From: Escherichia coli
GTDB lineage: Bacteria > Pseudomonadota > Gammaproteobacteria > Enterobacterales > Enterobacteriaceae
Direction: 5' to 3' (one strand)
NCBI RefSeq assembly: GCF_030013595.1
Contig: NZ_CP122768.1
Length of the DNA: 64,000 nucleotides
Below are positions 3,404 through 42,052 of this stretch, piece by piece. Within the stretch, counting starts at the first letter, position 1. Each line of letters opens with the position of its first letter. The notes under the pieces are model-generated. The model saw nothing but the letters and a program-made list of their open reading frames with translations, made no database searches and was not told the origin of the DNA. The position numbers and the translations under genes are program-made.

Positions 3404-5695
3404 TTGTCAGAACTACTCTCTTTCGCCCTTTTTCTCGCCTCTGTGCTGATTTACGCATGGAAAGCGGGACGTAACACCTGGTGGTTTGCAGCCACGTTAA
3501 CGGTGCTGGGGCTATTTGTCGTTTTAAATATCACCCTGTTTGCCAGCGACTATTTTACTGGCGATGGTATTAACGACGCGGTTCTCTATACCTTAACCAA
3601 CAGCCTGACCGGTGCTGGCGTCAGCAAATACATCCTGCCGGGTATCGGCATTGTGCTGGGGCTGACGGCGGTGTTCGGTGCGCTGGGCTGGATCCTGCGC
3701 CGTCGTCGTCATCATCCGCACCATTTTGGTTACAGCCTGCTGGCACTCTTACTGGCGCTGGGTTCAGTGGATGCCAGCCCGGCATTTCGTCAGATAACGG
3801 AACTGGTGAAATCCCAGTCACGCGACGGCGACCCGGACTTTGCGGCTTATTATAAAGAGCCGTCGAAAACTATCCCTGACCCGAAACTCAACCTGGTTTA
3901 TATCTACGGCGAAAGTCTCGAGCGGACCTATTTTGATAACGAAGCTTTCCCGGATCTCACGCCTGAACTGGGCGCGTTGAAAAATGAAGGCCTGGATTTC
4001 AGCCACACGCAGCAGCTGCCGGGAACGGATTACACGATTGCAGGCATGGTGGCTTCTCAGTGTGGCATACCGCTGTTTGCCCCCTTTGAAGGCAACGCCT
4101 CCGCCTCTGTCTCCAGCTTCTTCCCGCAGAACATCTGTCTGGGCGATATCCTGAAAAACTCGGGTTATCAGAACTATTTCGTGCAGGGCGCGAATCTGCG
4201 TTTTGCCGGTAAAGATGTGTTCCTGAAATCGCACGGCTTCGACCACTTATACGGCTCAGAAGAGCTGAAAAGCGTGGTGGCCGACCCGCACTATCGCAAC
4301 GACTGGGGATTCTACGACGATACCGTTCTCGATGAAGCGTGGAAAAAGTTTGAAGAGCTTTCCCGCTCAGGTCAGCGATTCTCACTGTTTACCCTGACAG
4401 TCGATACCCATCACCCGGATGGTTTTATCTCGCGTACCTGTAACCGCAAAAAATATGATTTTGACGGTAAGCCGAATCAGTCATTCAGCGCGGTAAGTTG
4501 CAGCCAGGAGAATATCGCGACGTTTATCAACAAAATCAAAGCGTCACCGTGGTTTAAAGATACCGTCATCGTCGTCTCTTCTGACCATTTAGCGATGAAC
4601 AACACGGCGTGGAAATACCTTAATAAACAGGATCGCAATAACCTGTTTTTTGTCATTCGTGGCGACAAGCCGCAGCAAGAGACGCTGGCAGTGAAGCGTA
4701 ACACGATGGATAACGGCGCGACGGTGCTGGACATTCTCGGTGGCGATAACTATCTCGGACTTGGTCGTAGCAGTTTATCCGGGCAGTCGATGTCGGAAAT
4801 CTTCCTCAATATCAAAGAGAAAACATTGGCGTGGAAGCCGGATATCATCCGCCTGTGGAAATTCCCTAAAGAGATGAAAGAGTTCACCATCGACCAGCAG
4901 AAAAACATGATTGCCTTCTCGGGTAGCCATTTCCGTTTGCCATTGCTGTTGCGGGTTTCAGACAAACGCGTGGAACCGCTGCCGGAAAGTGAATACTCAG
5001 CACCGCTGCGTTTCCAGCTGGCCGATTTCGCTCCACGCGACAATTTCGTCTGGGTTGACCGTTGCTACAAGATGGCACAACTCTGGGCTCCGGAACTGGC
5101 ACTTTCCACCGACTGGTGTGTCTCGCAAGGGCAGCTTGGCGGTCAGCAAATTGTCCAGCATGTTGACAAAACAACATGGAAGGGCAAAACGGTATTTAAA
5201 GATACGGTCATCGACATGGCGCGTTACAAAGGCAATGTCGATACGCTGAAGATTGTTGATAACGATATTCGCTACAAAGCCGACAGTTTCATCTTTAACG
5301 TCGCCGGTGCGCCAGAAGAGGTGAAACAGTTTAGCGGAATTTCCCGTCCGGAGTCGTGGGGCCGCTGGTCCAACGCTCAGCTGGGCGATGAAGTAAAAAT
5401 CGAGTACAAGCATCCGCTGCCGAAGAAATTTGACCTGGTGATTACCGCCAAAGCATACGGCAATAACGCCAGCCGTCCTATTCCGGTACGCGTAGGCAAT
5501 GAAGAACAAACCCTTGTGCTGGGCAATGAAGTGACCACCACCACACTGCATTTCGATAACCCAACCGATGCAGACACACTGGTAATTGTGCCGCCGGAAC
5601 CTGTCTCAACCAACGAAGGGAATATCCTCGGACACTCGCCGCGTAAGCTCGGGATCGGCATGGTGGAAATTAAAGTGGTAGAACGTGAAGGGTAA
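3404..5695 (+). CDS. opgB: phosphoglycerol transferase I (sulfatase-family membrane enzyme)
   Basis: 763-aa ORF with TTG start; N-terminal TM helices followed by a sulfatase-like domain; matches OpgB/MdoB from memory. Confidence 0.9.
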
Positions 5696-19805: not shown

Positions 19806-21395
19806 ATGAACAATAACGATCTGGTCGCGAAGCTGTGGAAGCTGTGTGACAATCTGCGCGATGGCGGCGTTTCCTATCAAAACTACGTCAATGAACTCGC
19901 CTCGCTGCTGTTTTTGAAAATGTGTAAAGAGACCGGACAGGAAGCGGAGTACCTGCCGGTAGGCTACCGCTGGGATGACCTGAAATCCCGTATCGGTCAG
20001 GAGCAGTTGCAGTTCTACCGTAATCTGCTGGTACATCTGGGCGCCGACAATCAAAAGCTGGTGCAGGCGGTGTTCCAGAACGTCAACACCACCATTACCC
20101 AGCCGAAACAGTTGACCGAACTGGTCGGCAATATGGATTCACTGGACTGGTACAACGGCGCACACGGTAAGTCGCGCGATGACTTCGGCGATATGTACGA
20201 AGGGCTGTTGCAGAAAAACGCCAACGAAACCAAGTCTGGCGCGGGCCAGTACTTCACCCCGCGTCCGCTGATTAAAACCATTATTCATCTGCTGAAACCG
20301 CAGCCGCGTGAAGTGGTGCAGGACCCGGCAGCCGGTACGGCGGGCTTTTTGATTGAAGCCGACCGCTACGTTAAGTCGCAGACCAATGATCTGGACGACC
20401 TTGATGGCGACACGCAGGATTTCCAGATCCACCGCGCGTTTATCGGCCTCGAACTGGTGCCCGGCACCCGTCGTCTGGCGCTGATGAACTGCCTGCTGCA
20501 CGATATTGAAGGCAACCTCGACCACGGCGGCGCAATCCGTCTGGGCAACACCCTGGGCAGCGACGGTGAAAACCTGCCGAAGGCGCATATTGTCGCCACT
20601 AACCCGCCGTTTGGCAGCGCCGCGGGCACCAACATTACCCGCACCTTTGTTCACCCGACCAGCAACAAACAGCTGTGCTTTATGCAGCATATTATCGAAA
20701 CGCTGCATCCCGGCGGTCGTGCGGCGGTAGTGGTGCCAGATAACGTGCTGTTTGAAGGCGGCAAAGGCACCGACATCCGTCGTGACCTGATGGATAAGTG
20801 TCATCTGCATACCATCCTGCGTCTGCCGACCGGTATTTTTTACGCTCAGGGCGTGAAAACTAACGTGCTGTTCTTTACCAAAGGGACGGTGGCGAACCCG
20901 CATCAGGATAAGAACTGCACCGATGATGTGTGGGTGTACGACCTGCGTACCAATATGCCGAGCTTCGGCAAGCGCACGCCGTTTACCGACGAGCATTTGC
21001 AGCCGTTTGAGCGCGTGTATGGCGAAGATCCCCACGGTTTAAGCCCGCGCACTGAAGGTGAATGGAGTTTTAACGCCGAAGAGACGGAAGTTGCCGACAG
21101 CGAAGAGAACAAAAACACCGATCAGCATCTGGCTACCAGCCGCTGGCGCAAGTTCAGCCGCGAGTGGATCCGCACCGCGAAATCCGATTCGCTGGATATC
21201 TCCTGGCTGAAAGATAAAGACAGTATTGATGCCGACAACCTGCCGGAGCCGGATGTATTAGCGGCAGAAGCGATGGGTGAACTGGTGCAGGCGCTGGGCG
21301 AACTGGATGCGCTGATGCGTGAACTGGGGGCGAGCGATGAGGCCGATTTGCAGCGTCAGTTGCTGGAAGAAGCATTTGGTGGGGTGAAGGAATGA
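19806..21395 (+). CDS. hsdM: type I restriction-modification N6-adenine methyltransferase M subunit
   Basis: 529-aa ORF with the NPPF catalytic motif (VATNPPFGS); 4-nt overlap with hsdS. Confidence 0.95.
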   Translation: MNNNDLVAKLWKLCDNLRDGGVSYQNYVNELASLLFLKMCKETGQEAEYLPVGYRWDDLKSRIGQEQLQFYRNLLVHLGADNQKLVQAVFQNVNTTITQPKQLTELVGNMDSLDWYNGAHGKSRDDFGDMYEGLLQKNANETKSGAGQYFTPRPLIKTIIHLLKPQPREVVQDPAAGTAGFLIEADRYVKSQTNDLDDLDGDTQDFQIHRAFIGLELVPGTRRLALMNCLLHDIEGNLDHGGAIRLGNTLGSDGENLPKAHIVATNPPFGSAAGTNITRTFVHPTSNKQLCFMQHIIETLHPGGRAAVVVPDNVLFEGGKGTDIRRDLMDKCHLHTILRLPTGIFYAQGVKTNVLFFTKGTVANPHQDKNCTDDVWVYDLRTNMPSFGKRTPFTDEHLQPFERVYGEDPHGLSPRTEGEWSFNAEETEVADSEENKNTDQHLATSRWRKFSREWIRTAKSDSLDISWLKDKDSIDADNLPEPDVLAAEAMGELVQALGELDALMRELGASDEADLQRQLLEEAFGGVKE

Positions 21396-22760
21396 GTGCG
21401 GAGAAATTGCCGGAGGGGTGGGTTGAGTGTGAATTATCCGAACTCGGTAACATTGTTACAGGGAAAACTCCCAGTACCAAGGAGCCTTCCAATTTTGGAG
21501 GCAGCATTCCTTTCATTAAACCAGGCGATCTTGATCTCGGTGGCTATATCATGAATACCGCCGATACTCTGACGGAGAAAGGGTTATCTCTTGTCCCCAC
21601 TCTTCCTGCCAATTCAGTCGTTGTGACGTGTATTGGAAATTTAGGAAAAGTTGGAATTACCGCTAAAAAATCAGCATCTAATCAACAAATAAATGCATTG
21701 ATCCCGTCAGAAAAGCTAAATGTAAAATTTGTTTATTACCAAATTTTAACATTAAAACCATGGTTAGAGTCTCAATCAGCAGCTACTACAATTGCGATTG
21801 TGAACAAGAGCAAATTTTCTCAGGCACCATTTAAATTCCCGTCGCTTGCCGAACAAAAAATCATCACTGAAAAACTCGATACGCTGCTGGCGCAGGTAGA
21901 CAGCACCAAAGCACGTCTTGAGCAAATCCCACAAATCCTGAATCGTTTTCGTCAGGCTATTCTAGCTAATGCTGTGGAAGGAAAATTGACCGACGAATGG
22001 CGAGCCGGAAAATGTTATATTACAGAAATCAAAAAATATCTGATATTATTCAGAATGCTCAAGTCGGATTAGTTCGTTCAGCTTCAGATCAAAGCGAAAT
22101 ATGCACTCAAAAAATGAGAACGCCTTACATAAAAATGAATAACATTCACAATGTTCTCGGAACAAATTTAGAAAAACTCGCTTATGTCAACTGTGATAGC
22201 TATGAACTGGAAAAATATAGATTAAAAAATGGAGATTGGCTCTTTAATACACGAAATAGTTATGAGTTAGTTGGTAAATCCTGTGTCTGGAATGGATGTA
22301 GCAATGCTGTATATAATAATAATATATTAAGAGTTAGACTAAAAGAAAACTACAATTCTGTTTTTTTAGATTATTGGTTTCACTCGTTCTATGGAGTGAG
22401 CATGCTTAATAGTATTAAATCCGCAACAACAAATGTTGCTGCGATATATCAGAAAGAACTCTTAAGTAAAAGTGTTCCATTCCCCCCCTTCCCGAACAAG
22501 CCGAGATTGTTCGCCGCGTCGAACAACTCTTCGCCTACGCCGACACCATAGAAAAACAGGTCAACAACGCCTTAGCCCGCGTTAACAACCTGACGCAATC
22601 CATCCTGGCAAAAGCGTTCCGTGGTGAACTCACCGCCCAGTGGCGGGCCGAAAACCCGGATTTAATCAGCGGAGAAAACAGCGCCGCCGCGTTGCTGGAA
22701 AAAATCAAAGCTGAACGCGCAGCCAGCGGGGGTAAAAAAGCCTCGCGTAAAAAATCCTGA
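21392..22760 (+). pseudogene. hsdS: type I specificity subunit HsdS, disrupted by two 1-bp homopolymer frameshifts; target-recognition domains differ from EcoKI
   Basis: three consecutive reading-frame pieces (21392..22072, 21997..22551, and a third frame to the TGA at 22758..22760); conserved central (LAEQKIITEKLDTLLAQVDSTKARLEQIPQIL) and C-terminal ([25 protein letters not shown]...) regions are recognisable. Confidence 0.8.
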
Positions 22761-23329: not shown

Positions 23330-23490
23330 CAGCGTTTACTCCCGGTTAACCACCGGGAGCCTTCCACTGACTCAATAGAAACTTTCCCCCTCAGTAAATA
23401 TTTACCTGCCTGATTGTGCAGTAAAAATCTATTGTTTCAGTACGTTGCGAAAGCGATAATAGAGGCTTAGCAATGAGGAAGGCACATCTT

Positions 23491-24870
23491 ATGGAATCAA
23501 TTCAAGCCTGGATTGAAAAATTTATTGAGCAAGCACAGCAACAAAGTTCACAATCCACTAAAGATTATCCAACGTCTTACCGTAACCTGCGAGTAAAAGT
23601 GAGTTTCGGTTATGGCAATTTTACATCTATTCCCTGGTTTGCATTTCTTGGAGAAGGTCAGGAAGTTTCTAACGGTATATATCCCGTTATTCTCTATTAT
23701 AAAGATTTTGATGAGTTGGTTTTGGCTTATGGTATAAGTGACACGAATAAACCACATGCACAATGGCACTTTTCTTCTGACATACCTAAAACAATCGCAG
23801 AGTATTTCCAGACAACTTCGGGTGTATATCCTAAAAAATACGGACAGTCCTATTACGCCTGTGCCCAAAAAGTCTCACAGGGTATTGATTACACCCGGTT
23901 TGCCTCTATGCTGGACAACATAATCAACGACTATAAATTAATATTTAATTCCGGCGAGAGTGTTATTCCACCTATGTCAAAAACTGAATCATACTGTCTG
24001 GAAGATGCGTTAAATGATTTGTTTATCCCTGAAACCACAATAGAGACGATACTCAAACGATTAACCATCAAAAAAAATATTATCCTCCAGGGGCCGCCCG
24101 GCGTTGGAAAAACCTTTGTTGCACGCCGTCTGGCTTACCTGCTGACAGGAGAGAAGGCTCCGCAACGCGTCAATATGGTTCAGTTCCATCAATCTTATAG
24201 CTATGAGGATTTTATACAGGGCTATCGTCCGAATGGTGTCGGCTTCCGACGTAAAGACGGTATATTTTACAATTTTTGTCAGCAAGCTAAAGAGCAGTCA
24301 GAGAAAAAGTATGTTTTTATTATAGATGAAATCAATCGAGCCAATCTCAGTAAAGTATTTGGCGAAGTGATGATGTTAATGGAACATGATAAACGAGGCG
24401 AAAACTGGTCTGTTCCCTTAACCTACTCCAAAAACGATGAAGAACGATTCTATGTTCCGGAGAATGTTTATATTATCGGTTTAATGAATACTGCCGATCG
24501 CTCTCTGGCCGTTGTTGATTATGCCCTGCGCAGACGATTTTCTTTCATAGATATTGAGCCAGGTTTTGATACGCCACAGTTCCGGAATTTTTTACTGAAT
24601 AAAAAAGCAGAACCTTCATTTGTTGAATCTTTATGCCAAACAATGAACGAGTTAAACCAGGAAATCAGCAAAGAGGCCACTATCCTTGGGAAAGGATTCC
24701 GCATTGGGCATAGTTACTTCTGCTCCGGGTTAGAAGATGGCACCTCTCCGGATACGCAATGGCTTAAGGAAATTGTGATGACGGATATCGCGCCTTTACT
24801 CGAAGAATATTTCTTTGATGACCCCTATAAACAACAGATATGGACCGACAGATTATTAGGTGACTCATAG
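23491..24870 (+). CDS. mcrB: McrB GTPase subunit of the 5-methylcytosine-specific restriction system
   Basis: 459 aa from MESIQAW at 23491; AAA+ GTPase motifs (LQGPPGVGKT). Confidence 0.9.
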   Translation: MESIQAWIEKFIEQAQQQSSQSTKDYPTSYRNLRVKVSFGYGNFTSIPWFAFLGEGQEVSNGIYPVILYYKDFDELVLAYGISDTNKPHAQWHFSSDIPKTIAEYFQTTSGVYPKKYGQSYYACAQKVSQGIDYTRFASMLDNIINDYKLIFNSGESVIPPMSKTESYCLEDALNDLFIPETTIETILKRLTIKKNIILQGPPGVGKTFVARRLAYLLTGEKAPQRVNMVQFHQSYSYEDFIQGYRPNGVGFRRKDGIFYNFCQQAKEQSEKKYVFIIDEINRANLSKVFGEVMMLMEHDKRGENWSVPLTYSKNDEERFYVPENVYIIGLMNTADRSLAVVDYALRRRFSFIDIEPGFDTPQFRNFLLNKKAEPSFVESLCQTMNELNQEISKEATILGKGFRIGHSYFCSGLEDGTSPDTQWLKEIVMTDIAPLLEEYFFDDPYKQQIWTDRLLGDS

Positions 24871-25972: not shown

Positions 25973-28900
25973 TCAGGAGGCGAGCACCTCCACCAGCACA
26001 TCCGTTGCCCAGCTCTCTTCACTGTTGACCACATTCCCTTCCTGACAAGCTTGATCCATTTTGACTAACTGGAAAGAAACGTCATCGCGGAAGTCAAAGT
26101 AATGCCATTGCGATGCAAAGTTGATACGCCAGTAGCCCATCCCCTGATCGAAGCGGATCTTCAATACCTGACCATCCTCAAAAGTCACCGTCAGTTTACG
26201 ATGGTGAGGGATATCGCGCGGCGAGTCGAACACCGCCAGTTCTACCGGCCTGCCCAGCGCAGCTGCAAACCACTGATCAGCGAAATCCTGAAAATCCGCT
26301 ATGCTCATCCAGTCATGAAAAGGCCGGTTACCGGGGCGATCTTTATCTTTAAACAGCGTATCCAGCGTCACTTCAGCGCCATCGGTCAGCTTTGTTTTTA
26401 GCGGTCTCAGAATTGATCCCAACAACGCCAGCGCAACCGGGTTTTGCAGATAGCGATCGGTATAGTGAACGCCGGTAATTCGCGTATTTTTCATCAGTGA
26501 CTGCGCTTCTTCATGGTCGTTAAACAGCACGTCCCAGAAGCGTTGCCCAAACTGCGACAACGGTCCATTCAACTGTTTGTGGATCTGGATGTCTTTGACC
26601 CGCTCGACAGCGTTGGCGGCTTTAGCTGGCAGAATAAACTCGCTCAGTTCTACCGTTTTATAACCGAGGCTACGCACTACCAGTTCGTCATTCAGGTGCC
26701 ACTCCGGCCCCGGAATCGTTGCCTGCTGACTGCGAGAGGCCAGCGTCATCACGCGATCGGCAAAGGTAACCTGGGCAACAATCGGTAATTGCAGATCCTG
26801 TTCAACATGGCACAGTCGCACACCCAGCGCAGTAAATTGCGATAGTTCATGCAACAGGTCCGGATCATCCACTCCCGCAGGAATAACAAGATCGACCTCG
26901 ACGTTGTCTTTTAGCCGATAGCTCTGAATAGCCGCGCGGAACTGACGGGCGTATAAATCCCACTCATTGGGCGCGCCAGTCATCCACAGGGTGAGCTTTT
27001 CAGCGCCTTCGTTAATCGCCCGGCGAATCGTATCGCCAATAGCGCCAGGGCAGTAGCGGGCATCCGGCAGCGAGAATGTCTCTTCATCCGGTAAACCGAT
27101 GTAATACGTGAAGTCATCGCCAAGCCAGGCCAGCGCCGCTTTGCGATCCAGCAAATCATGATCGTGGCGAGTCTGGGAATCAAGCAGGCATTCACTGCAT
27201 GCAGTATCACAATGGCGGCAGCCTAACTGTTTCACCATTCCCTGCAAAATAGCTTCAATGTGTACCGGTGCGCTGGAGGCAAAACCTGCACCACCGCTGA
27301 TCACATCATAAAGCTGTACGGCTAATACCGATTGCCCATCCTCCAGTCTGACCGGACGTACAGAATAGCCGAGTTCTGCGGTGGAGATACCCAGAACGCC
27401 CGCCAGCGCCTGACGCAGAGCAACCGCCAGAGTCATGGCGACAATCCGCCCCTCTTCTGTGTTATCTGGCAGATACTCGCCATTTTGTGGTTTGCGCAGA
27501 ACCATTTCAAAGACATCGGTGCGCGCCAGTGCGCCCAGGGTGACTTTCTTCACGAGTGCCGTCGAACCTGGGCAAATCAGACGATGATTCTGGCTGTCGC
27601 GGTCCGCTTTACCCGGACGCGGTGGATAGTGAGCTTCCATACTTTTCGGCGCATCATTTTCATTCAGCATCGACTCCGCACGGCCACAGCTCAGACACAA
27701 TGCATAACCGTGTCCACCTTCCCCCAGACTTTGCTGGAAAACATGCCCATCAGCCCCAGAAGCCATATAACCCATTAGCGGGTTAGGCAACGGTACGGGC
27801 TCTGCTTTAACAAAGACCCACGCGGGGACAACCGGGACGAATTTCATGGTTTCAATATTGTTCGTTACCGGAGCATGTGCATCGGTAACAAACCCGGCAG
27901 GCTGCAGCACCTGACGGCGATTATCCAGGATGATTTTTTCGCCGCAGGCGCTGTTGGAGCAAAAGAGCATCCCGGAACTGCTCATCCCCTCTTCATAGCC
28001 AATGGTCCCGCATTTATGACAGCGCCAGGCGCAATCCAGACGCTGGGCTTCATTGGTATCAGCATTAATGTTGTGCCAGTGCAGTGAGACACCGGCAGAG
28101 CGGAAGACACGGCCATCAAGAATGATCTCTGCTCCCGGTGCATATTCACGAATGGCAACACCGAGGTTACGGGAAGGTAATCCTTTATAACGGGAGACGT
28201 TATCTTCACGGTCCTTTTTATCACGACTTTTCTGCGATTTTTCGCGGATATAATCTTCCATCGTGAAGTTATCAAACGTCACTACATCTGTCGGGAAACC
28301 GTATCCCGGCAGGAAGGTTCTGGCAGCCAGATCGCGCAGCAGATACTCGCCACAGTGCCGTTTCTTCTCCAGCTCTATGCGCTTACGATAAGGCGTTTGC
28401 GGCTGCGACTCACGCTCCTGGGTCACGAGATCGCGATAAACGGAGAGCCACCGCTGTTGCAGGAAGGTGATCGCGTTGATTGTTTTGTCCCGCAGATGTT
28501 CGGCTCTTGCGCCATGCAATGCCGTACCTTTCACCAGCCGTTCCAGCGCCGTGTCGATATCAAGAACAGAGCGTTCCAGCCAGACTTTGAAGCGTTCGCA
28601 TTTTGACTCCCCGTCATCTTCACCGAAAAACCAGAGGCTATCGAGGCTGGTTTTCTCTTTATCGGTTTCGCCAATAACGTTACATAAAAAGTCGGACAGT
28701 AATAATGCATTGACGTGACGTTGCACCAGTCGGGCGGAGTTCATCGCGACCATGGGTGCCGGGATCATGGTTTCAAACGGCCAGAGTGGGTTGGCAAAAA
28801 CCTGTTGGTCGTGTGGGTTACCCTTACATAGGGTGTAAGAGATCGCGCGCGATTCTTTACTACGCCCGGCTCGCCCGGCGCGCTGTAAATAGTTGGCCGG

Positions 28901-31900
28901 ATGTGGCGGTACGTTGTTCATTACCACCGCAGTAATGCCCCCGATATCAACCCCCATTTCCATGGTGGTGGAACAGTTGAGAACATTTAGTTGCCCATTC
29001 TTGAACATCTTTTCATAGCTTTGCAGACGTTCTGACGACTGCTGGGCAGAGTGCTCGGCAGTGCGATAGTAGAAACCGCCTTCCACGACACGATCGTTGA
29101 TGTCTGTCCAGACGTTTTCCGACCGCAATTGTGCGATCAGCGGATCATTGCTGACCCAGTCGCGTGCTTTTGCCAGACCCTCTGCGTAGTCTTCCTGTGA
29201 ACGATCCAGCTTCCAGATTTCCGGCATGGTGACTTTCTGCGCGACAAAAGTGTCATATTGCGCCTGGGTAAGATGCTCGAACGAAATATGGGTAGGCAGA
29301 TAAGGGGTTAAGCCTTTAAAAGCCGTATCCAGGATTTTATTGGTTACCGGGCAAATCCAGGCATCCGTGATTAAAGAAAAAGTCATATGCTCTTTCGGTA
29401 AATAAAAACGGTTGCCATCGGGTTTCAGTACTGCAAGCGGTCCGGTAAGTTGGGCCCATGCTTCTTTCAGCCATGTATTGATAATATCAATAGTCGCCGT
29501 ATTGACGGTTTTGAATCCAGCCCCCAGCATCAGTAACTTCGCTAAACGATGGGATACGTTGCCATTACGAATTTGAGGCCAGCGTCTGTTCTGATTATCT
29601 TCAGGATCTTTTGATTCCGGGTTACGGACGAATTTTGATGAAAAACGGCTACCAATCCAGTTTTTCAGCTCATCATCCAGCTGTGTGAAGTTGCTTTCGC
29701 GAACATAAAGATCCAACGTAACCTTGAGAAAATCGCGCCAGTCATCCAGCGTTAATCCTTTTTCCTGCCAGTGCAAGGGGCTCTTATGTATTTTCTCCAG
29801 CCCCTGGTAACCAACCTGAACCAGCCCCTGTGTTTCCAGGCTGTTAGTCCGTTTAGGGCGACGCATGAATTCCCGGAACAACAACATTTCCGAAAGCTTT
29901 AGTGGCCCGCCGTTTTTATTAAACACTTCAGGCTGCAAATAGTGGTTATATTTCAGTACCGGGCCACGGATATCGGCTTTATCTTTAAGCTCGTTAACCA
30001 TTTCTGTCCAGGTGCGGGATACCAGGGTAGTTGCTGCTTTTCCACCGGTTGCAGCCTGATAAGCCTGTTCAAGCTGTTCAGCCTGCGCTTGTGACAATTT
30101 CGCCTGGTCTGGCATTCCCCAGCTTCGATATTCTTCTGCCTGCTCACGGGCTTGCTTCGCCCTGGCCGCTAATTTTTCCAGATCGGCATTGGCATTCGGC
30201 GCCGTGGACGTTTGCGTCCGTTGATGCCAGCTCAGAATTTCGACTACGCTTCCGCGTAAGAGACTGCGTTCTGCTTCTTGCTGCATACGCACCGCCATTC
30301 GAGCTGTACCTTGTCGACTGTCCGTAAAGGTAATGAGTCGACGTCCTCGCCCTGGCAACGAATCTGGTCCGACGCCCTCTTTGCCTTCATCACTGGTAAA
30401 GTCCTGACAATACTCAAGAACGGTAGGCACGATGTTAGTAACGTAAAATGGCCCACCTAATAATGCACGCCGGAAGGGTTGTTTCCCACTCATGCCTCGG
30501 TAGCCACAGCCGCTGGCGCTACAAACCTTTTTATCATTAATAATCAGCGGAATGCTGTCATTATTAATAACGCCAATACGGCGCGTCTGACGGTCGAGGC
30601 GTTGTAGGGTATAGCCTGTCTCGCTGGTCTCTCCTGCGGCAATAATCAACGGAGGCAGGAAACCGTTCTCTTTTTCGACTTTTTCCTCTGTAGTGTCATG
30701 TTCAACAGGTACTTCATCCTGCAAGGAGAACTCATCGCCACCTTTATTTTCCCATTGGACAAGTTTGCCCTTTTTGTCCTGCGCCAGAAGATGAGGCTCA
30801 TTACAATCATTACAGAACGCCACTTCGTAGACAGGGCTTCCACAGTCGCAATTTTGTCGCTGGTTCACATACACATAGCCAAAGGGCCAGCCTTTTTCGA
30901 GCGGTGTACCGTGCTTTAATCTGCAATCTTTATCAACACAAGCCCATATTCCTTGGGTATTACGCTGGAAGATATGCGCCCTGACTTTAAGAAATGCGGG
31001 ATCCTTTGCATTAGGTTGAGTCCCTGAACAGACATCGATCCAACGCAGTACTTCCTGCTGGCTGTAATGCTGTTTTGTCAGCGCATTTAACCGCTGCGTC
31101 ATCTCATCCAGTTTCATTGGATTAGGTTGGCTAACCAACATTTCACGTATGTAACGCGCTTCGGGGGAGTGCGTAAGCGCATAAAAGCGCTCAGGACTTA
31201 TCCCTTTAATTTTATTATCATTTTTATCTTTTAGATCCAGATCAGGTATTTGCTCTATTTCGTCTAACGGAACAGAAACGTTTTTGGATGGTTCCAGTTC
31301 AGGAATCACCCGACTTCCGTCCAGAACATCGATGCGCTCCTGCGGGATACCGGATAATTCAGAGAGAAATTTTTTCAGCTGTTTTTCGGCGTCGCTGCCG
31401 GCAATGGTCGCAGAGGTCGCTACAAAGCGCACATCATCTGGCGTCACGCCAAACGCTGTCATCACACGACGCAGCTGGAGTGCCAGTTCAGCGGCCTGCG
31501 ACCCGACATAGGTATGCGCTTCATCCAGTACAATCCAGCGTAGTGATTTTTGTGCTTTGGATTGCTGGATAATCGGGGCGTCGACCTGGCGAACCATCAT
31601 ATATTCCAGCATCGTGCCGTTGGTCACCAGAATCGGGGCAGGCTCCAGACGCATCTTTTCACGGGATAAGACTTCATTTGGTCTATTATCCTGCACTGTT
31701 TTCATTTTTGCGTGGAGCTCTTCTGTATTTCCGTTATACAAGCAGTAGCGGATCCCAGTACCAAAACCACGCGTCCAGGCATCCAGACGCTCGCGCTGTG
31801 AATTAATCAAGGCGTTCAATGGATAGAGAAAAAGGGCTCGGACACCAACCAACGGATTGTTGCCATTTTCATGCAGTTCCCGGTAAAGATCTTCCAGCAC

Positions 31901-32314
31901 CGGAACCATAAAACATTCCGTTTTACCTGAACCCGTACCACTGGTTACCACCACTGAATGTTTCTTTTCCAGCAAAGCTTTCCAACTGGCTAACTGGTGT
32001 GTAAAAGGCTTCCAGTCAGCACCAAATCGGTACCGGCCATTACTCTGATTATCCAGTGAATCAACCACTGCTTTGCTCAACAATGCGTTGCCTTCCGTCA
32101 GACTGCGCATCGTGTGGTTTGACTCCTTCCAGCCAAACATTTGCTGGAATACCGGAGAAGCAAGGAATGAGCCCGGTTTCCCACAATCAGCCCCCATTTG
32201 TTGCGCGAGATGTTCACGCAGCTGCGGGTTGGTTACGCCCATGATACTGAGCGTTGCTTCAGTTGAACGAGACAACGATTGTTCAATAAGTGACGAAAAA
32301 TAGCGTGTAGTCAT
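25973..32314 (-). CDS. 2113-aa DEAD/DEAH-box helicase with Cys-rich zinc-ribbon-like modules (DruE-like defence helicase; inferred)
   Basis: Walker A SGTGSGKT (31919..31945), DEAH (31514..31525), SAT motif, helicase motif V MEMGVDIG and [10 protein letters not shown] (28862..28885), Cys clusters [45 protein letters not shown] before the ATG. Confidence 0.85.
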
Positions 32315-32326
32315 CCTTATTCCTTT

Positions 32327-35300
32327 TTATTTTTTAGCAACATAACGCAACAGGCTGCACTGAAAGATGGTCTTAAACCAGCGGGAATCGAAGTCCCTGA
32401 CTTGCCTCAGGAAAAATACGGCACCGGGTTTACGGTCAAATACAGCTTCAAAAGAAGTATTTCCGCTTGCCACAGCTGCAGCGAAGACGGGTAACCAGGC
32501 CACGGAATAGCGGTGATTTGCGTCAGGATTAATACCAATCACTGGATTTTTTTGTGACATCATCCATTTATACAGACGCTTGCAGCCATATTCAGGCCAG
32601 CGAGCTTCACTGTGCTCACGTAAAAGCTCCTGATACCACCCGTGGACACAAGATTCAGGAATAGACGGAGGGAGATATCCGTTACTTAACCATTTCTCAA
32701 TTTCATCGGCATATGTCGGGAACACGAGCCCCAGCCGTTGAAACATATTAGTAACCAGTAATTTCTGGGTTTCCTCCGGTGCACCTTTTTGGCTCAGGAA
32801 CAATTTGAAACGCTCAGATGCAGCTTTGATCTCAAAGATGGGGAAAAACTCCCATAGAATAGGGAACTCATTCTCAATACGACTCAGGTACTCTGCTGAC
32901 ATTTCAAATTTGAAGAGCGACATCGCCAATGCCTGCGGATGCTGCACTAGTGCACGCCATACTTCAAAGGTTGCCAGCGGTAAATAACCAAATTGATCGT
33001 ACAGGCTACGCATAAATTGCCAGCCGGAATGGGCAGGATCGTTAGCCATCTGTCCGAGAACCAGTGTGATGGTATTAACTTCTGCCTGTGGATTAAAAAG
33101 CTGGGTCGCTTTCTGCAATGAGCGGATGTTGCTTTCTTCTACCGGTAACGAAGATTCGCCACGAATGAAGCAGGGGCGAAAAGCCATCTCCTCACCCGGT
33201 TTAGGAACAACCAACCATGGCCCATTTTTGTTAACGATTGAGCTCAACTCATATTCACCGACAGGCACTCCCTCGCTCATTCTTGATGCTAAGGGGATGG
33301 ATTTCCTCTCGGGTTCACTTAACAGCATGATAACGGGGGAAGGAATCTGCCCAGCACGATGGTTCACTGACTGGCTGAGTAATAGTTCTTTTTCATAATC
33401 ATAGCGCAGGCTGTATTTATAGCGACGAATTTGCCAGGCCATGACCACACCTGCCCCCGTAATACGCATCTCAACAACCTGATCAATACCTGCCTCAAGT
33501 GAAATCAGGTTCTCAATATGTTCGCGCAGACTATAGAGATTCAATTCAACAGGACGATCGCTCTACGCCGTATAACACCATTCATGCCATGCCTGTAATC
33601 CACTAACGGAGCGCAAATACAACTGCAATGTATATTTTGTCGGCTCACCATTTCTGGAGAACAGAAACGCTCTGGAACCCAGCAGATCATGCAGCGTAAT
33701 GTTTTTATCCAGAGGACGTCCGTTTACATCAAGAGCGAGACAGCCTTTAGCGGGAAAAGGTAACTCAATGTCGATGGGGTCAGCCGCCAAATTAGGCAGA
33801 ACTTGTAATGTAATAAATGCCGGAGGTACCCCTTCCGCTTTAAGTTGTATCTCTGTTCGCCCCTCAGTACGCTTACGTGTAGCCTCCAATGTTTTATCTT
33901 TAAGTTTTGCTACACAAGGATGCTGTGTGGTGATTAAGATAGTGCCTTCATTTGCGTGCATTCCACCTTTTATCTCAATACTGAAATCAGCAGGCAAGAT
34001 ACCGATTTTGCGACGCAAGAGCGTTTCATTGTTACTATTACGGATAGAAAGATATTGAGCCCCCAGCATCTCTTGTATATGACATTGCTCAATTGAAATT
34101 CCGCTCAGGTAACGCGTTACATCAATGCTTTGAATATCCGGTAGTGTAGAAATGACTTTTGGTACACCAATAAATGTTTCATCTGGATGACAAACCCAGC
34201 TTGCACGCTTTCCATTTAGAGCAAACCTTCCGATGCTGATTTGTTCTCTTCCGGTGCGAATCCGATAAGTTTCATTTGCTGTAACTGTAACGTCCTGACA
34301 TCCCTTCACAGGTAGTGCTTTTAGTCCTAATACGTTTACTGCGCTCGATTGGCCATCAAAACCAGCAACATTGCTATTATCCCGAGGGAGTACAATCAGA
34401 ACATCGCTGCTTCGCACACTGCAAGAAGCCTGTCCCTGTAACAGCCATTGATCTGCATCAACGATGAAGGTTAACGGCACCTCACCAATGGCAATTTCAC
34501 TGTCATCAAGTTTAATGCTCCCAACAATCATCCCTCCAGCACGAGCCACTAATGACAAACCAGCCGATGGATTTTGCCTGACAAATCTCACTTCGCTTTT
34601 ACGTAATCGAACTGTTGCCTGTCTGTTTTCCAGGGAAGCATAGGCTGGCCCAAGGCCAGAGACTTCCTCACCATCTTCACAAATGGCAAGTTCAAAGCGC
34701 GTAGTTGACGGCTCGCTTGTTACAGGAAAGGAAACTTCGTCCGGAAGAGATACTATCACCCTAAGCTCATCTGGATGCTTTTCTGACCAATAGAATTGGC
34801 AACGCGTACTCTTATTTTTTTGTAGTCGAGGCTTAGCCTCTACAGAGGCTGCGCATAGCAGTCCATTCAAAAAATGCGTTCCTGTTTCATCATCTAACGG
34901 TATTGGAAACTCGCTTCGCCAGGTAGGGTGAACCTTCTCAAGCTGTTGTACTGGTTCTTTGTGATTTATTAGGTTGTGAGTAAGTACTAAGGAATTGAGG
35001 TTATCAGCCATATGACTGATAAGTTCTACAGAGGTATCTTCGCTAAAAACAGTTGGCAGCGCTGATTTTTCTATGACAGCTCTTGCCAGCGAAAGGGCAG
35101 AAAAACCTGACTGCTTTGCTTGCTCATATTGTCCAAGGATCCTGGAGAAAACAGCCAGAAAGCGACTGTCTGATTCTTTGAGTAGCCGGAAAGGTAAACC
35201 ACCTTCACTGAATAATGTTCCGAGAAAATTGCGTCGTTCAGATTCATAAAATCGAATTGGGCGCAGCCAGTAATCTTCCATCCCTTTCGGTACGATAGTA

Positions 35301-35617
35301 CCAAGCTCTGTGGCGGTGAATGAAATCCCTATTTTTTTATATATAGGGTCCCACGTCCATCCGCATTGCCGTTCATAATCCCTGCGGTACCACTCAGAGC
35401 AAAAAAGAACAAAACAGGCAGCAAAGTCCCTATTACATATATTAGATTGTGATTGACCGACCGCACGGAGTAGCTGCGTTAATTGGGTATATTCATCATT
35501 GGTTGCATGATATTCATAAAGAGGACGGCCATCCGGTTGTCTCAACCCTCTAAGATTCACAAAGTTACTTAGCCAGGAAGTACATTTTACCCATGAAATG
35601 TATTCTGATTGACCCAA
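32327..35617 (-). pseudogene. ~1096-aa protein of unknown function (DruH-like by position) interrupted by one in-frame TAG at 33563..33565
   Basis: ORFs 33563..35617 (684 aa) and 32327..33544 (405 aa) are in the same frame, separated only by TAG plus six sense codons; no Shine-Dalgarno precedes the downstream TTG; 12-nt gap with RBS to the helicase gene. Confidence 0.75.
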
Positions 35618-36456: not shown

Positions 36457-37869
36457 ATGACGCGTTATCAACATCTGGCAACTCTGCTTGCCGAGCGGAT
36501 TGAGCAAGGGCTGTATCGTCACGGGGAGAAATTGCCGTCGGTGCGCAGCTTAAGTCAGGAGCACGGCGTCAGCATCAGCACCGTGCAGCAGGCGTATCAG
36601 ACGCTGGAGACGATGAAGCTCATCACTCCGCAGCCGCGTTCGGGGTATTTTGTCGCACAACGTAAAGCCCAGCCGCCAGTGCCGCCGATGACGCGTCCGG
36701 TGCAGCGCCCGGTGGAAATTACCCAGTGGGATCAGGTGCTGGATATGCTGGAGGCGCATAGCGACAGTTCCATTGTTCCGTTAAGCAAAAGCACGCCGGA
36801 TGTCGAAACGCCCAGCCTGAAACCGCTCTGGCGGGAGCTAAGCCGGGTAGTGCAGCATAATCTGCAAACCGTTCTCGGTTATGACTTGTTAGCCGGTCAG
36901 CGGGTATTGCGCGAGCAGATTGCCCGCCTGATGCTCGACAGCGGCTCGGTAGTCACCGCCGATGACATCATCATTACCAGCGGCTGCCATAACTCGATGT
37001 CGCTGGCGTTAATGGCGGTGTGTAAACCGGGCGATATTGTCGCGGTCGAATCACCCTGTTATTACGGTTCGATGCAGATGCTGCGCGGCATGGGCGTGAA
37101 AGTGATTGAAATCCCAACCGATCCAGAAACTGGCATCAGCGTTGAAGCGCTGGAACTGGCGCTGGAACAGTGGCCGATTAAAGGCATCATTCTGGTGCCA
37201 AACTGTAATAATCCGCTGGGATTTATTATGCCGGACGCGCGCAAACGGGCCGTTCTCTCTCTCGCTCAGCGTCATGATATTGTGATTTTTGAAGATGATG
37301 TCTATGGCGAACTGGCAACGGAGTATCCGCGCCCGCGGACCATTCATTCCTGGGATATCGACGGGCGAGTGCTGTTGTGCAGCTCGTTCAGTAAAAGTAT
37401 TGCACCTGGCCTGCGTGTGGGCTGGGTCGCGCCGGGACGTTATCACGATAAACTGATGCATATGAAATACGCCATCAGCAGCTTTAATGTACCGTCCACG
37501 CAAATGGCGGCGGCAACGTTTGTGCTGGAAGGTCACTATCATCGCCATATCCGGCGGATGCGGCAGACTTATCAGCGCAATTTGGCGCTTTATACCTGCT
37601 GGATACGGGAATATTTTCCCTGCGAAATCTGTATTACGCGCCCGAAAGGCGGATTTTTACTGTGGATAGAATTGCCTGAACAGGTCGATATGGTCTGCGT
37701 CGCGCGGCAGCTGTGCCGCATGAAAATCCAGGTGGCGGCAGGCTCGATTTTCTCAGCTTCCGGCAAATACCGTAATTGTCTGCGCATCAACTGCGCTTTG
37801 CCGCTCAGCGAAACCTATCGCGAAGCACTGAAGCAAATTGGCGAGGCAGTGTATCGGGCAATGGAATGA
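36457..37869 (+). CDS. yjiR: MocR-family regulator (GntR wHTH fused to aminotransferase-like domain)
   Basis: 470-aa ORF with N-terminal HTH and PLP-fold C-terminal domain. Confidence 0.85.
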   Translation: MTRYQHLATLLAERIEQGLYRHGEKLPSVRSLSQEHGVSISTVQQAYQTLETMKLITPQPRSGYFVAQRKAQPPVPPMTRPVQRPVEITQWDQVLDMLEAHSDSSIVPLSKSTPDVETPSLKPLWRELSRVVQHNLQTVLGYDLLAGQRVLREQIARLMLDSGSVVTADDIIITSGCHNSMSLALMAVCKPGDIVAVESPCYYGSMQMLRGMGVKVIEIPTDPETGISVEALELALEQWPIKGIILVPNCNNPLGFIMPDARKRAVLSLAQRHDIVIFEDDVYGELATEYPRPRTIHSWDIDGRVLLCSSFSKSIAPGLRVGWVAPGRYHDKLMHMKYAISSFNVPSTQMAAATFVLEGHYHRHIRRMRQTYQRNLALYTCWIREYFPCEICITRPKGGFLLWIELPEQVDMVCVARQLCRMKIQVAAGSIFSASGKYRNCLRINCALPLSETYREALKQIGEAVYRAME

Positions 37870-37929
37870 ATTCGAAATAGTGGCGAAGCGCCTGATTTAC
37901 TCTCACGAATCGCCTGTAACTCGTTTTAT

Positions 37930-38010
37930 CTTTATAGCGACATCGCCACGTTCTGGCATGGCTCAGGCAAAGTGTGCTTCGTTCATGCCGGATGCGGCGT
38001 CAACGCCTTA
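37930..38010. repeat. REP-like palindromic units downstream of yjiR
   Basis: catgccggatgcggcgtcaacgccttaccaggtctac. Confidence 0.4.
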
Positions 38011-38111
38011 CCAGGTCTACAAAATCTTTAAAGTTCAATATATTGAATGGGTTATGTAGACTTGATAAGCGTAGCGCACCAGGCAGCTTTGCGTTTGTCA
38101 TAAGTCTCTGA

Positions 38112-39032
38112 TTAGTACTCGAGCCATGAATCGTGCTCACGGTCAGGCAGGGGCTGCACTAATGCCTGTATTTGCTCTGCCGAAAGTCCGGTAATCTTTT
38201 GTATCCATTCAGGATCTACCCCATTCTGCAAAAACAATCGAAGAATGCGCTGTTCCCCTTTTATACATCCATCATTATGAATTCGCTCTGCAATTGTCAT
38301 TATTCGCTCCCTGTGGTGTGGCATTCGCCTGGTAAGTTCGCTGATAAACTTCTTAAAACGCGCTTCATCGCCAGTCAGTAAAATGTAATTTAACAGCGCG
38401 GTTATCTGGCTGTCATTAGCGCACCCTGTAACCAATAATACTGCCAGTTGATCAATAAGCCCCATTAGATCGCGCTGGCGAATATGCTTTTGGATCAACT
38501 CCAACAGGGCGACTCTGCGGTGCTGCACAATCTCGTCGTCTGGCACGACAGTGACATCCACCAGCGGGAACGCTGCAGTATAAAGCTTCCGTGCAGTAGT
38601 CGGGTCGGCAAATTCGTCCAGCCAGCACAAAGACCAGGGATAAGGACTACGGCTACCGTGATAAAACAGCATCGGGATGACCAGCGGTAGCGGCCGGCGT
38701 TTATCATGCTCGATATGGCGCTGCATCACCGCCATGGAATATCGCATCAGGCGAAAGGCCATATGGATATCCTCGCGGCTCTGATGTTCAATCACTACGT
38801 AAATATAACCATCACCTTCACGGGTCTTTACCGACCACAGAATATCGGAGTGTAGCGCCCGCAATTTTTCATCGACGAAGCTGGCGGATTCCAGTTTTAA
38901 GCTGTCGAGATCGCACAGTTCACGTAAATCTTTGGGTAAGTGGATCTCCATAAAATCCCGCGCGGTGTCAGGGTGCGTGAGAAAGGACTTAAATAATGCG
39001 TCATGCGGCGTGCTGGTCGTGAAGTTTGTCAT
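38112..39032 (-). CDS. rpnD: Rpn-family recombination-promoting nuclease (PD-(D/E)xK, transposase_31-like), apparently intact
   Basis: 306-aa uninterrupted ORF ([17 protein letters not shown]...); the K-12 counterpart yjiP/yjiQ is split, from memory. Confidence 0.7.
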
Positions 39033-39498
39033 GGCGATCCGTCACCTGTTGATAAGATGGCCCGACTTTAGCGACTAACAAAACCATTCTCACCCGGCAA
39101 TTTCTCGTTCCCCGAGGCACTTTCCAGGCTATTTTTATTCTTCTGCAAACGATACATTTTTCCGGAAACAGGCTCGCATTTTACATTTCCTGTACCCGGC
39201 AGATATTTCCCTTTCCACCGCACTCTTTTGATTAACCGCAAATTTTAATTACACTTAAGGTGTATATTTTCTATGCAACCCATCAATTCAAGAGGTGTAA
39301 TGTGCTGATGACTATTTGTAATCGTTATACATTCTGACCTGGAGTCAGAAGGTATTTCTCTGTCTGTGTGTTCACAGGCAGTGTGGTTGATTACATGAAA
39401 TTCAGTACATTTGTCCTTCTCGCCTGCCTTTAGTCATTACCGACGGTATTGAATTTCGTTTTCTCCATTGGGGTTCTCCGGACAAGGAGTTGTTTGTT

Positions 39499-40731
39499 AT
39501 GCCACGTTTTTTTGCTCGCCATGCCGCCACGCTGTTTTTCCCGATGGCGTTGATTTTGTATGACTTTGCCGCGTACCTGTCGACGGATCGGATCCAGCCA
39601 GGGATCATTAATGTGGTCCGTGATTTTAATGCCGATGTCAGTCTGGCCCCTGCTGCCGTCAGTCTCTATCTTGCTGGCGGTATGGCGTTACAGTGGCTGC
39701 TGGGGCCGCTTTCCGACAGAATTGGCCGCAGGCCGGTGCTGATTACCGGGGCGTTAATTTTTACCCTTGCCTGCGCCGCGACAATGTTCACCACGTCAAT
39801 GACACAATTTCTTATCGCGCGTGCAATTCAGGGCACCAGTATCTGTTTTATTGCCACCGTTGGTTATGTCACGGTGCAGGAGGCGTTCGGACAGACAAAA
39901 GGGATCAAGTTGATGGCGATTATCACCTCCATCGTACTGATTGCGCCGATTATCGGCCCGCTTTCCGGCGCAGCTCTGATGCACTTTGTGCACTGGAAAG
40001 TCCTTTTTGCCATCATTGCGGTTATGGGTTTTATCTCATTTGTTGGCTTACTGCTGGCGATGCCAGAGACGGTGAAGCACGGCGCGGTTCCATTTAGCGC
40101 CAAAAGCGTCTTGCGCGATTTTCGTAATGTCTTTTGCAATCGGCTGTTCCTCTTTGGCGCAGCAACCATCTCTTTAAGCTATATCCCAATGATGAGCTGG
40201 GTGGCTGTCTCGCCGGTGATCCTGATTGACGCAGGCGGCTTAACGACCTCGCAGTTCGCCTGGACACAGGTTCCGGTGTTCGGCGCGGTGATTGTCGCGA
40301 ATGCCATCGTGGCGCGTTTCGTTAAAGATCCGACCGAACCGCGGTTTATGTGGCGTGCCGTACCCCTTCAACTGGTCGGCCTCGCGCTGTTGATTATCGG
40401 CAATCTGCTGTCGCCGCACGTCTGGCTGTGGTCGGTGCTGGGCACCAGTCTGTATGCTTTCGGGATTGGTTTGATTTTCCCGACCTTATTCCGCTTTACG
40501 CTGTTTTCCAATAACTTACCGAAAGGGACCGTCTCCGCATCGCTGAATATGGTGATCCTGATGGTGATGTCTGTCTCGGTCGAAATCGGCCGCTGGCTGT
40601 GGTTTAACGGCGGTCGCTTGCAGTTTCATCTGTTAGCCGTTGTGGCAGGCGTTATCGTCGTTTTCACCCTGGCCGGATTGCTTAATCGCGTGCGCCAACA
40701 TCAGGCTGCCGAGCTGGCGGAGGAGCGGTGA
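39499..40731 (+). CDS. mdtM: MFS multidrug efflux transporter
   Basis: 410 aa from MPRFF at 39499; 12-TM MFS profile. Confidence 0.85.
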
Positions 40732-40771
40732 TTTTTGCGCGATCCTGCCGCCAGGCTCTATTCTTAACGTT

Positions 40772-42052
40772 ATGAATAAACTCATTGAACTCAGACGCGC
40801 CAAAATGTTGGCGCTCTCTTTACTGCTTATCGCCGCTGCTACCTTTGTCGTTACGCTGTTTTTGCCGCCCAATTTTTGGGTGAGCGGCGTGAAGGCGATT
40901 GCTGAAGCGGCGATGGTCGGCGCGCTGGCGGACTGGTTTGCGGTGGTGGCGCTGTTTCGCCGCGTGCCGATTCCGATCATTTCTCGTCATACGGCGATTA
41001 TCCCGCGTAATAAAGACCGGATTGGCGAAAATCTCGGTCAGTTCGTGCAGGAAAAATTTCTCGATACCCAATCGCTGGTGGCATTGATTCGACGTCACGA
41101 ACCGGCGTTGTTGATTGGCAACTGGTTTAGTCAGCCAGAAAACGCCCGCCGCGTTGGTCAGCATCTGTTGCAGATCATGAGCGGTTTTCTTGAACTGACC
41201 GATGATGCGCGTATTCAGCGCCTGCTTAAGCGCGCGGTCCACCGGGCGATTGATAAGGTTGATCTTTCTGGCACCAGTGCGTTGATGCTGGAGAGTATGA
41301 CCAAAAACGATCGTCATCTGGTGCTGCTGGATACGCTGATCGCACAGTTGATCGCCCTTCTCCAGCGCGATAAATCGCGCAAGTTTATCGCCCAGCAAAT
41401 TGTTCGCTGGCTGGAGAGCGAGCATCCACTGAAAGCCAAAATTTTGCCCACTGAATGGCTGGGCGAACATAGCGCGGAGTTGGTTTCTGACGCGGTGAAT
41501 TCTTTGCTTGATGATATCAGCAGCGATCGTGCGCATCAGATCCGCCATGCGTTTGATCGCGCCACCTTTGCCCTGATCGACAAGTTGAAAAACGATCCTG
41601 AAATGGCAGCGCGAGCCGATGCCGTAAAAAGCTATCTGAAAGAAGACGAAGCTTTTAACCGCTATCTCAGTGAATTGTGGGGAGATTTACGGGAATGGCT
41701 GAAAGCGGATATCAACAGTGAAGATTCTCGAGTGAAAGAACGTATCGCGCGGGCGGGTCAATGGTTTGGCGAAACGTTAATTGCCGATGATGCCTTGCGG
41801 GCGTCGTTAAATGGTCATCTGGAACAAGCCGCGCACCGCGTCGCGCCTGAGTTTTCCGCATTCCTGACGCGACATATCAGCGATACGGTAAAAAGCTGGG
41901 ATGCGCAGGATATGTCGCGGCAAATCGAGTTAAATATCGGCAAAGATCTGCAGTTTATCCGTGTCAACGGTACGCTGGTTGGCGGTTGTATTGGGCTAAT
42001 TTTGTATTTGCTTTCGCAGCTCCCGGCCTTGTTCCCCCTCGGCAATTTTTAG
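40772..42052 (+). CDS. yjiN: DUF445 inner-membrane protein
   Basis: 426 aa from [11 protein letters not shown] at 40772 (track ORF begins earlier, overlapping mdtM). Confidence 0.8.

Follow-up and report, generated by a model that had tools for sequence, protein, structure and literature searches.

In Escherichia coli K-12, rpnD is a pseudogene. The stretch of DNA analysed here (the window: 64,000 nt of E. coli contig NZ_CP122768.1) contains an ORF that had been proposed to be the same gene in intact form, which raises the question of whether it is rpnD, how it relates to the K-12 copy, and what an intact rpnD would make. In the ORF listing of the window, this locus has a single frame of 306 aa that is uninterrupted, as the original prediction had stated; it reads on the minus strand, begins with ATG and has no internal stop. 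Its product matches Pfam PF04754 (Transposase_31, YhgA-like) over residues 8–210 with E = 1.1e-86 and 290 bits against a cut-off of 21, covering positions 1–202 of a profile of 203, and the NCBIfam model TIGR01784 ('Rpn family recombination-promoting nuclease/putative transposase') gives it 159.9 bits, where the cut-off is 52.1. Together with the invariant catalytic residues described below, these matches bear out the predicted membership of the Rpn (transposase_31, PD-(D/E)xK) family. The coordinates of all features are collected in Table 1.

The protein is the same, residue for residue, as RefSeq WP_024230320.1 of the O169:H41 strain Res13-Lact-PER13-34, isolated from a pig, and the DNA of the two alleles differs by one synonymous base. 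It shares 94.4% of its residues with K-12 RpnD when the amber codon is read as Gln (93.3% at the nucleotide level), versus 58, 62, 48 and 56% with K-12 RpnA, RpnB, RpnC and RpnE, respectively. An 11-kb slice of the window is collinear with 7.9 kb of K-12 MG1655 at 96.5% identity in the order yjiN-mdtM-rpnD-yjiR-yjiS-yjiT, with yjiR on one side of the ORF and mdtM/yjiN (39499..42052, plus strand) on the other. Because the ORF shares the K-12 synteny and is far closer to K-12 RpnD than to RpnA, RpnB, RpnC or RpnE, it was assigned to rpnD, as predicted. The NCBIfam model that is highest by name is the RpnA equivalog (395 bits), a match that could be taken to mean that the ORF is one of the other paralogues, rpnA, rpnB, rpnC or rpnE. 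That score lies under the model's cut-off of 583, and with paralogue identities of 48–62% and the synteny of K-12 rpnD this reading is vanishingly improbable and was rejected. Alignment and gene order identify the ORF as an intact, chromosomal copy of rpnD (formerly yjiP) from an E. coli other than K-12.

The names Transposase_31 in Pfam and ISNCY in NCBIfam suggest an IS transposase that moves itself, and the model NF007418 ('ISNCY family transposase') does match the protein with 392.8 bits, a score that falls short of the model cut-off of 583. The distribution of the gene also argues against mobility: rpnD was found in 4242 of 5426 complete E. coli genomes at 4247 places, 4245 of them chromosomal, with a median of one place and a maximum of two per genome, and it adjoins mdtM or yjiN at the loci examined. 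No second copy was found in a search within the window, nor were terminal inverted repeats found flanking the gene. Autonomous transposition of Rpn proteins is without evidence, and their fold is that of a PD-(D/E)xK nuclease (Zhong et al., 2023; PMC10400941). An IS/ISNCY transposase was rejected as very improbable on the sub-cut-off score, the single chromosomal copy and the lack of flanking inverted repeats, and the proper label for the ORF is rpnD, Rpn family recombination-promoting nuclease, not transposase.

Table 1. Features of the rpnD locus (window positions).
Feature	Position	Strand	Basis
rpnD long form (RpnD_L), intact 306-aa CDS + stop codon, nuclease with C-terminal tail	38112..39032	-	ORF list, Pfam, NCBIfam, alignments
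RpnD_S, in-frame internal ORF from Met245, 62 aa, predicted antitoxin/oligomerisation domain; short allele without extra 4-aa repeats	38112..38300	-	
Internal start ATG, Met245	38298-38300	-	homologous to RpnA M244 iTIS
Internal Shine-Dalgarno AGGGAG, codons R241-E242, 6 nt 5' of internal ATG	38307..38312	-	
Candidate sigma-70-like promoter, ATGACA, 18-nt spacer, TG-TAAATT, ~87 nt upstream of internal start	38387..38416	-	consensus match only, weak
PDDE motif, residues 164-167	38532..38543	-	paralogue alignment; RpnA mutagenesis
Codon 104, CAG (Gln); TAG in K-12	38721..38723	-	translation + alignment
PD-(D/E)xK catalytic core: D63 38844-38846, E82 38787-38789, Q84 38781-38783	38781..38846	-	invariant in five paralogues
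Catalytic residues beyond core span: D11, R94	D11 39000-39002; R94 38751-38753	-	invariant in five paralogues
yjiR, GntR/aminotransferase fusion, syntenic neighbour fixing orthology	36457..37869	+	comparison with K-12
mdtM, MFS efflux pump, opposite-side syntenic neighbour	39499..40731	+	comparison with K-12

The original prediction had described the K-12 locus as two fragments, yjiP and yjiQ. That it is broken was confirmed by alignment, but the break is one nonsense change within a single RefSeq feature and not a split. K-12 MG1655 (NC_000913.3) carries one 921-bp pseudogene, rpnD b4584, at 4568998-4569918, and in another MG1655 record the same span is called by PGAP as an Rpn family pseudogene with 'internal stop'. 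The names yjiP and yjiQ both occur in the literature. Like its K-12 counterpart, the window gene is 921 bp long, and the two align gap-free with 62 substitutions and with shared start and stop positions; the sole disabling change is C310T, which converts codon 104 from CAG (Gln104) to a TAG amber codon, and no frameshift is present. The two genes also have in common their locus, their catalytic residues and their internal RBS and ATG, and their products differ at 18 residues besides the amber codon. An exact match to the K-12 61-mer spanning the TAG was found in 338 of the 5426 complete genomes, and the matches listed consist of laboratory derivatives of K-12 and of NEB 'B' strains with a K-12 segment at the locus.

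The intact gene is the normal state in E. coli. Kingston et al. (2015; PMC4498929) reported a complete YjiP in most E. coli and the premature stop in K-12, and synthesised and tested a repaired K-12 gene (yjiPc); the feature is already known and has been in print since 2015. Among the natural non-K-12 alleles whose annotation was inspected, eight of 10 are intact (the window, O169:H41, Nissle 1917, G1/2, UTI89, WR14-2, C51 and 2017C-4173W12) and those of O157 and TB06052 are frameshifted. Alleles at least 99% identical to K-12 rpnD are present in 563 genomes. The rpnD of bovine strain C51 differs from that of K-12 by one base, the C at nt 310, and its product, WP_000181202.1 (C51 and 2017C-4173W12), equals K-12 RpnD with Gln104 and no other amino acid change; by this comparison, WP_000181202.1 is the true natural intact counterpart of the K-12 pseudogene. 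It is an intact 306-aa RpnD from the same locus as that of the window; the two differ at 18 residues, of which the 62-aa RpnS tail accounts for 10, and the window gene is therefore a different allele and not the ancestor of the K-12 gene. The window allele is also uncommon, since alleles at least 99% identical to it at the DNA level occur in only five of the 5426 complete genomes. The suggestion that it would be a useful reference for an ancestral RpnD was consequently not upheld: the intact state is common and published, and C51-type alleles match K-12 except at nt 310. As a discovery the intact ORF has little value, because the lesion is published, characterisation of the repaired protein has been done, and RefSeq already includes intact proteins that are identical or closer.

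The N-terminal portion of RpnD has the residues expected of an active nuclease of this family. When the window protein was aligned with RpnA, RpnB, RpnC and RpnE, residues D11, D63, E82, Q84 and R94 and the PDDE motif occupied invariant columns. Mutations at D11, D63, E82, Q84, R94 and the PDDE residues change RpnA activity, for which the catalytic residues are needed, and the RpnA D165A substitution, within the PDDE motif, is hyperactive (Kingston et al., 2017; PMC5350276). An AlphaFold2 model built from a 9-sequence alignment is of low confidence (mean pLDDT 55, pTM 0.39) and contains helix 34–39, strands 40–47, 63–70 and 76–84, helix 91–109 and strand 117–124; the order of these elements agrees with the PD-(D/E)xK alpha-beta-beta-beta-alpha-beta arrangement, at a mean pLDDT of 55 only. 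A phmmer search of the PDB with full-length RpnD returned no match at E ≤ 0.01.

The C-terminal portion contains a predicted second, in-frame gene. The rpn genes have been described as genes-within-genes, in which an internal start gives RpnS, the C-terminal tail of the protein, which binds and inhibits the toxic RpnL (Zhong et al., 2023; PMC10400941). Each of the five K-12 rpn genes has an iTIS by Ribo-RET and Onc112 profiling as well as an internal TSS, and SPA tagging revealed all five K-12 RpnS proteins, including RpnD_S (Zhong et al., 2023; PMC10400941). In the same study no RpnD_L was seen from the K-12 chromosome, as expected from the amber codon. The window rpnD has the internal RBS, the Met and the small C-terminal ORF that characterise Rpn L/S gene-within-gene systems. 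The internal ATG is kept in all eight alleles compared; the Shine-Dalgarno sequence is AGGGAG in seven of them and AGAGAG in O157. Met245 is invariant across all five paralogues within a conserved MTIA(E/D)R motif. A promoter scan yielded five sites, a number no better than the chance expectation of 3.0, so that the internal promoter in Table 1 is a candidate only.

The register of Met245 was fixed by independent published positions in the paralogues. The RpnA iTIS was mutated as M244L and its RBS codons as K240/E241 (Zhong et al., 2023; PMC10400941); the internal Shine-Dalgarno of the window matches these RBS codons, RpnA being one residue shorter upstream of the start. Counted from the aligned Met, the stop codons introduced at E25 of RpnA_S and D29 of RpnB_S fall on the right residues, and chain A of PDB 7TH0 (RpnA_S, 49 aa) starts at the Met homologous to Met245. 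Since the M244L position, the E25 and D29 counts and the first residue of 7TH0_A agree, the register is regarded as settled. RpnD_S is homologous to the crystallised helical dimerisation domain of RpnA_S: a phmmer search of the PDB with RpnD_S matched 7TH0_A gap-free over residues 1–47 of both (E = 0.001), and RpnD_S runs 13 residues past the C-terminal end of RpnA_S. The rpnD_S ORF is unannotated in every RefSeq record inspected, standard pipelines calling the long ORF alone.

We consider it very probable that rpnD is a gene-within-a-gene toxin-antitoxin module, by analogy with the characterised members of the family. RpnD_L would be a DNA endonuclease of the PD-(D/E)xK type; its action would damage DNA and trigger the SOS response, and its overproduction would be toxic. 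RpnD_S would be made from the internal RBS and the Met245 ATG, probably from its own internal transcript, would share the C-terminal helical oligomerisation domain with RpnD_L, and would bind RpnD_L and keep the nuclease inactive. Were this inhibition lifted, for example upon phage infection, the nuclease would act in an abortive-infection type of defence. RpnD has the domain architecture, the catalytic residues, the iTIS at the homologous Met and the RpnS domain of RpnA (YhgA) L/S, RpnB, RpnC and plasmid RpnP2. We infer nuclease activity from that of RpnA in vitro, and toxicity and SOS induction from the repaired K-12 RpnD (named so by Kingston et al., 2017; PMC5350276), which is toxic and among the fastest inducers of an SOS reporter. 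Translation of RpnD_S is presumed from the five K-12 rpn genes, rpnD included, and its antitoxin action from RpnA, RpnB and RpnC. The phage-defence step is drawn from plasmid RpnP2, the one Rpn protein for which defence has been demonstrated and which is not chromosomal (Zhong et al., 2023; PMC10400941). RpnD gave no match in PADLOC v2; this says nothing against a role in defence, because the 2023 library contains no fitting model.

The surroundings of rpnD bear both on this proposal and on an alternative to it. On the yjiR side lie yjiS and then a type III Druantia pair, yjiT (DruH) and a 2113-aa helicase (DruE), both identified by PADLOC (E = 0), and beyond them mcrC, mcrB, symE, hsdS, hsdM and hsdR; rpnD thus borders the defence island known as the 'immigration control region' (ICR). 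Enrichment of rpn genes near defence genes has been reported (Zhong et al., 2023; PMC10400941), and the position at the island border fits both this enrichment and the reason given by Kingston et al. (2017; PMC5350276) for studying rpnD. A physiological role in RecA-independent recombination and horizontal gene acquisition alongside the ICR, and not in toxin-antitoxin phage defence, could account for the location beside a variable island and for the finding that overexpression of repaired RpnD raised RecA-independent recombination ~4.7-fold with shorter replacement tracts (PMC5350276, PMC4498929). However, the recombination effect needed overexpression, and deletion of rpnA-D left the basal recombination frequency unchanged (PMC5350276), although that deletion was no test of intact RpnD_L because rpnD on the K-12 chromosome is itself interrupted by the amber codon. 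Conflict with phages better suits the hypervariability of the RpnS tail and the reported enrichment of rpn genes in defence islands (Zhong et al., 2023; PMC10400941), and we regard a primary role in recombination as unlikely, though worth keeping in view.

Substitution patterns differ between the two parts of the gene. When the window gene was compared with three other 921-bp alleles, dN/dS was 0.04–0.06 over codons 1–210 (nuclease domain), versus 0.71–0.80, from only 8–16 substitutions, over codons 245–306 (RpnS). The nuclease domain is under purifying selection and evolution of the tail is relaxed or diversifying. Alleles occur in lengths of 306, 314 and 318 aa, the longer forms carrying insertions of 8 and 12 G/E/K/R-rich codons that start 11 residues after Met245; the window rpnD is the shortest length form. 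Variable four-residue repeats have been described 8–20 residues beyond the Met of RpnS (Zhong et al., 2023; PMC10400941), and the length variation of rpnD falls inside this zone, as in other L/S systems. The 93.3% identity of rpnD to K-12 is lower than that of mdtM (96.7%), yjiR (98.2%) and yjiT (99.5%).

Selection on the nuclease domain also bears on the possibility that the long ORF, while intact, is effectively silent and RpnD_S is the main product, loss of RpnD_L being tolerated in K-12, O157 and others. Transcripts and proteins of the K-12 RpnS forms outnumber those of the long forms, RpnA_L and RpnD_L being undetected (Zhong et al., 2023; PMC10400941), and the RpnS ORF survives in each of the three alleles in which the long form is knocked out (K-12, O157 and TB06052). 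Against this, nuclease-domain dN/dS between intact alleles is ~0.05, which shows strong purifying selection on the long form, and the majority of sampled alleles are intact; a silent long ORF is accordingly quite improbable, and a module in which both products function continues to be preferred.

The two frameshifted alleles were disrupted by different lesions. The rpnD pseudogene of O157 strain FDAARGOS_293 (positions 1335-1384 of locus L005) contains a 25-nt tandem duplication, gacgattgcagagcgaattcataat x2, which frameshifts RpnD_L. Because the duplication copies the internal ATG, a 66-aa RpnS ORF beginning MTIAER is restored in the terminal frame, without the AGGGAG Shine-Dalgarno sequence. 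A 76-nt junction query for O157-type duplications was confounded by alleles lacking the duplication that match in two joined pieces, and the resulting count was discarded. In TB06052 (locus L009), 7 nt are deleted near codon 129, and the RpnS ORF is kept. Together with the K-12 amber codon, three of three independent L-form knockouts retain the RpnS ORF. These three alleles raise the possibility, which we regard as doubtful, that rpnD may be repeatedly turned into an 'orphan antitoxin' gene across E. coli; retention in all three is easily expected under a null model because RpnS is preceded by ~80% of the gene's length. If selection and not target size were responsible, RpnD_S would serve a separate function, such as immunity to incoming Rpn toxins, and if the orphan-antitoxin reading were true, the rare intact window allele would represent one specificity type in a polymorphism of L/S pairing.

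The flanks of rpnD vary among strains. In UTI89 and WR14-2 (loci L008 and L010) rpnD directly adjoins yjiN, mdtM being absent; yjiR is absent in UTI89, and in WR14-2 a fragment of it comprising the GntR domain overlaps the 3' end of rpnD. In these strains rpnD has thus been kept while both flanks vary. The 242-bp spacer between rpnD and yjiR in the window (37870..38111) contains REP/BIME-like sequence visible by eye, e.g., GCCGGATGCGGCGTCAACGCCTTACCAGG, although a repeat search of this intergenic region found nothing. The spacer gave no blastn match to the 243-bp spacer of K-12, so its repeat content has apparently been replaced.

Several other genes of the window differ from their homologues. 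yjiT (DruH; 32327..35617, minus strand) carries an amber at codon 685 (TTG to TAG, stop at 33563-33565) and but for this codon matches an intact 1096-aa DruH at 99.76% identity; the amber is private to the window genome, and the adjoining gene for the 2113-aa DruE (25973..32314, minus strand) is intact. This genome's Druantia system has probably been inactivated. hypT (yjiE, encoding the hypochlorite-response LysR regulator; 57780..58691, plus strand) carries an amber at codon 129 (TGG to TAG, stop at 58164-58166) and is apart from it 98.6% identical to an intact homologue. The 61-mer spanning the hypT amber has an exact match in no complete E. coli genome, the best match having one mismatch, and the mutation is therefore private to the window genome. 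Among 20 genes fully compared with the closest genome, hypT and yjiT are the only ones with premature stops, both TAG and both unique to the window genome; the pair could reflect coincidence, sequencing error or a suppressor background.

Within the restriction genes of the island, the central ~540 bp of hsdS (21955-22494, within 21392..22760, plus strand) are unrelated to hsdS of the closest genome, a divergence that suggests a different target-recognition domain. The hsdS region is covered by overlapping ORFs at 21392..22072 and 21997..22551, and the specificity subunit may be frameshifted. mcrB (23473..24870, plus strand) is an intact 465-aa ORF, whereas in the otherwise closest genome, O169:H41, this gene has lost ~600 bp and is frameshifted. 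The mdtM-rpnD intergenic region is 93.7% identical to that of K-12, with 8 gaps, and within it the 11-codon small ORF ytiE (b4823 in K-12; 39302..39337, plus strand) is base-for-base the same as in K-12.
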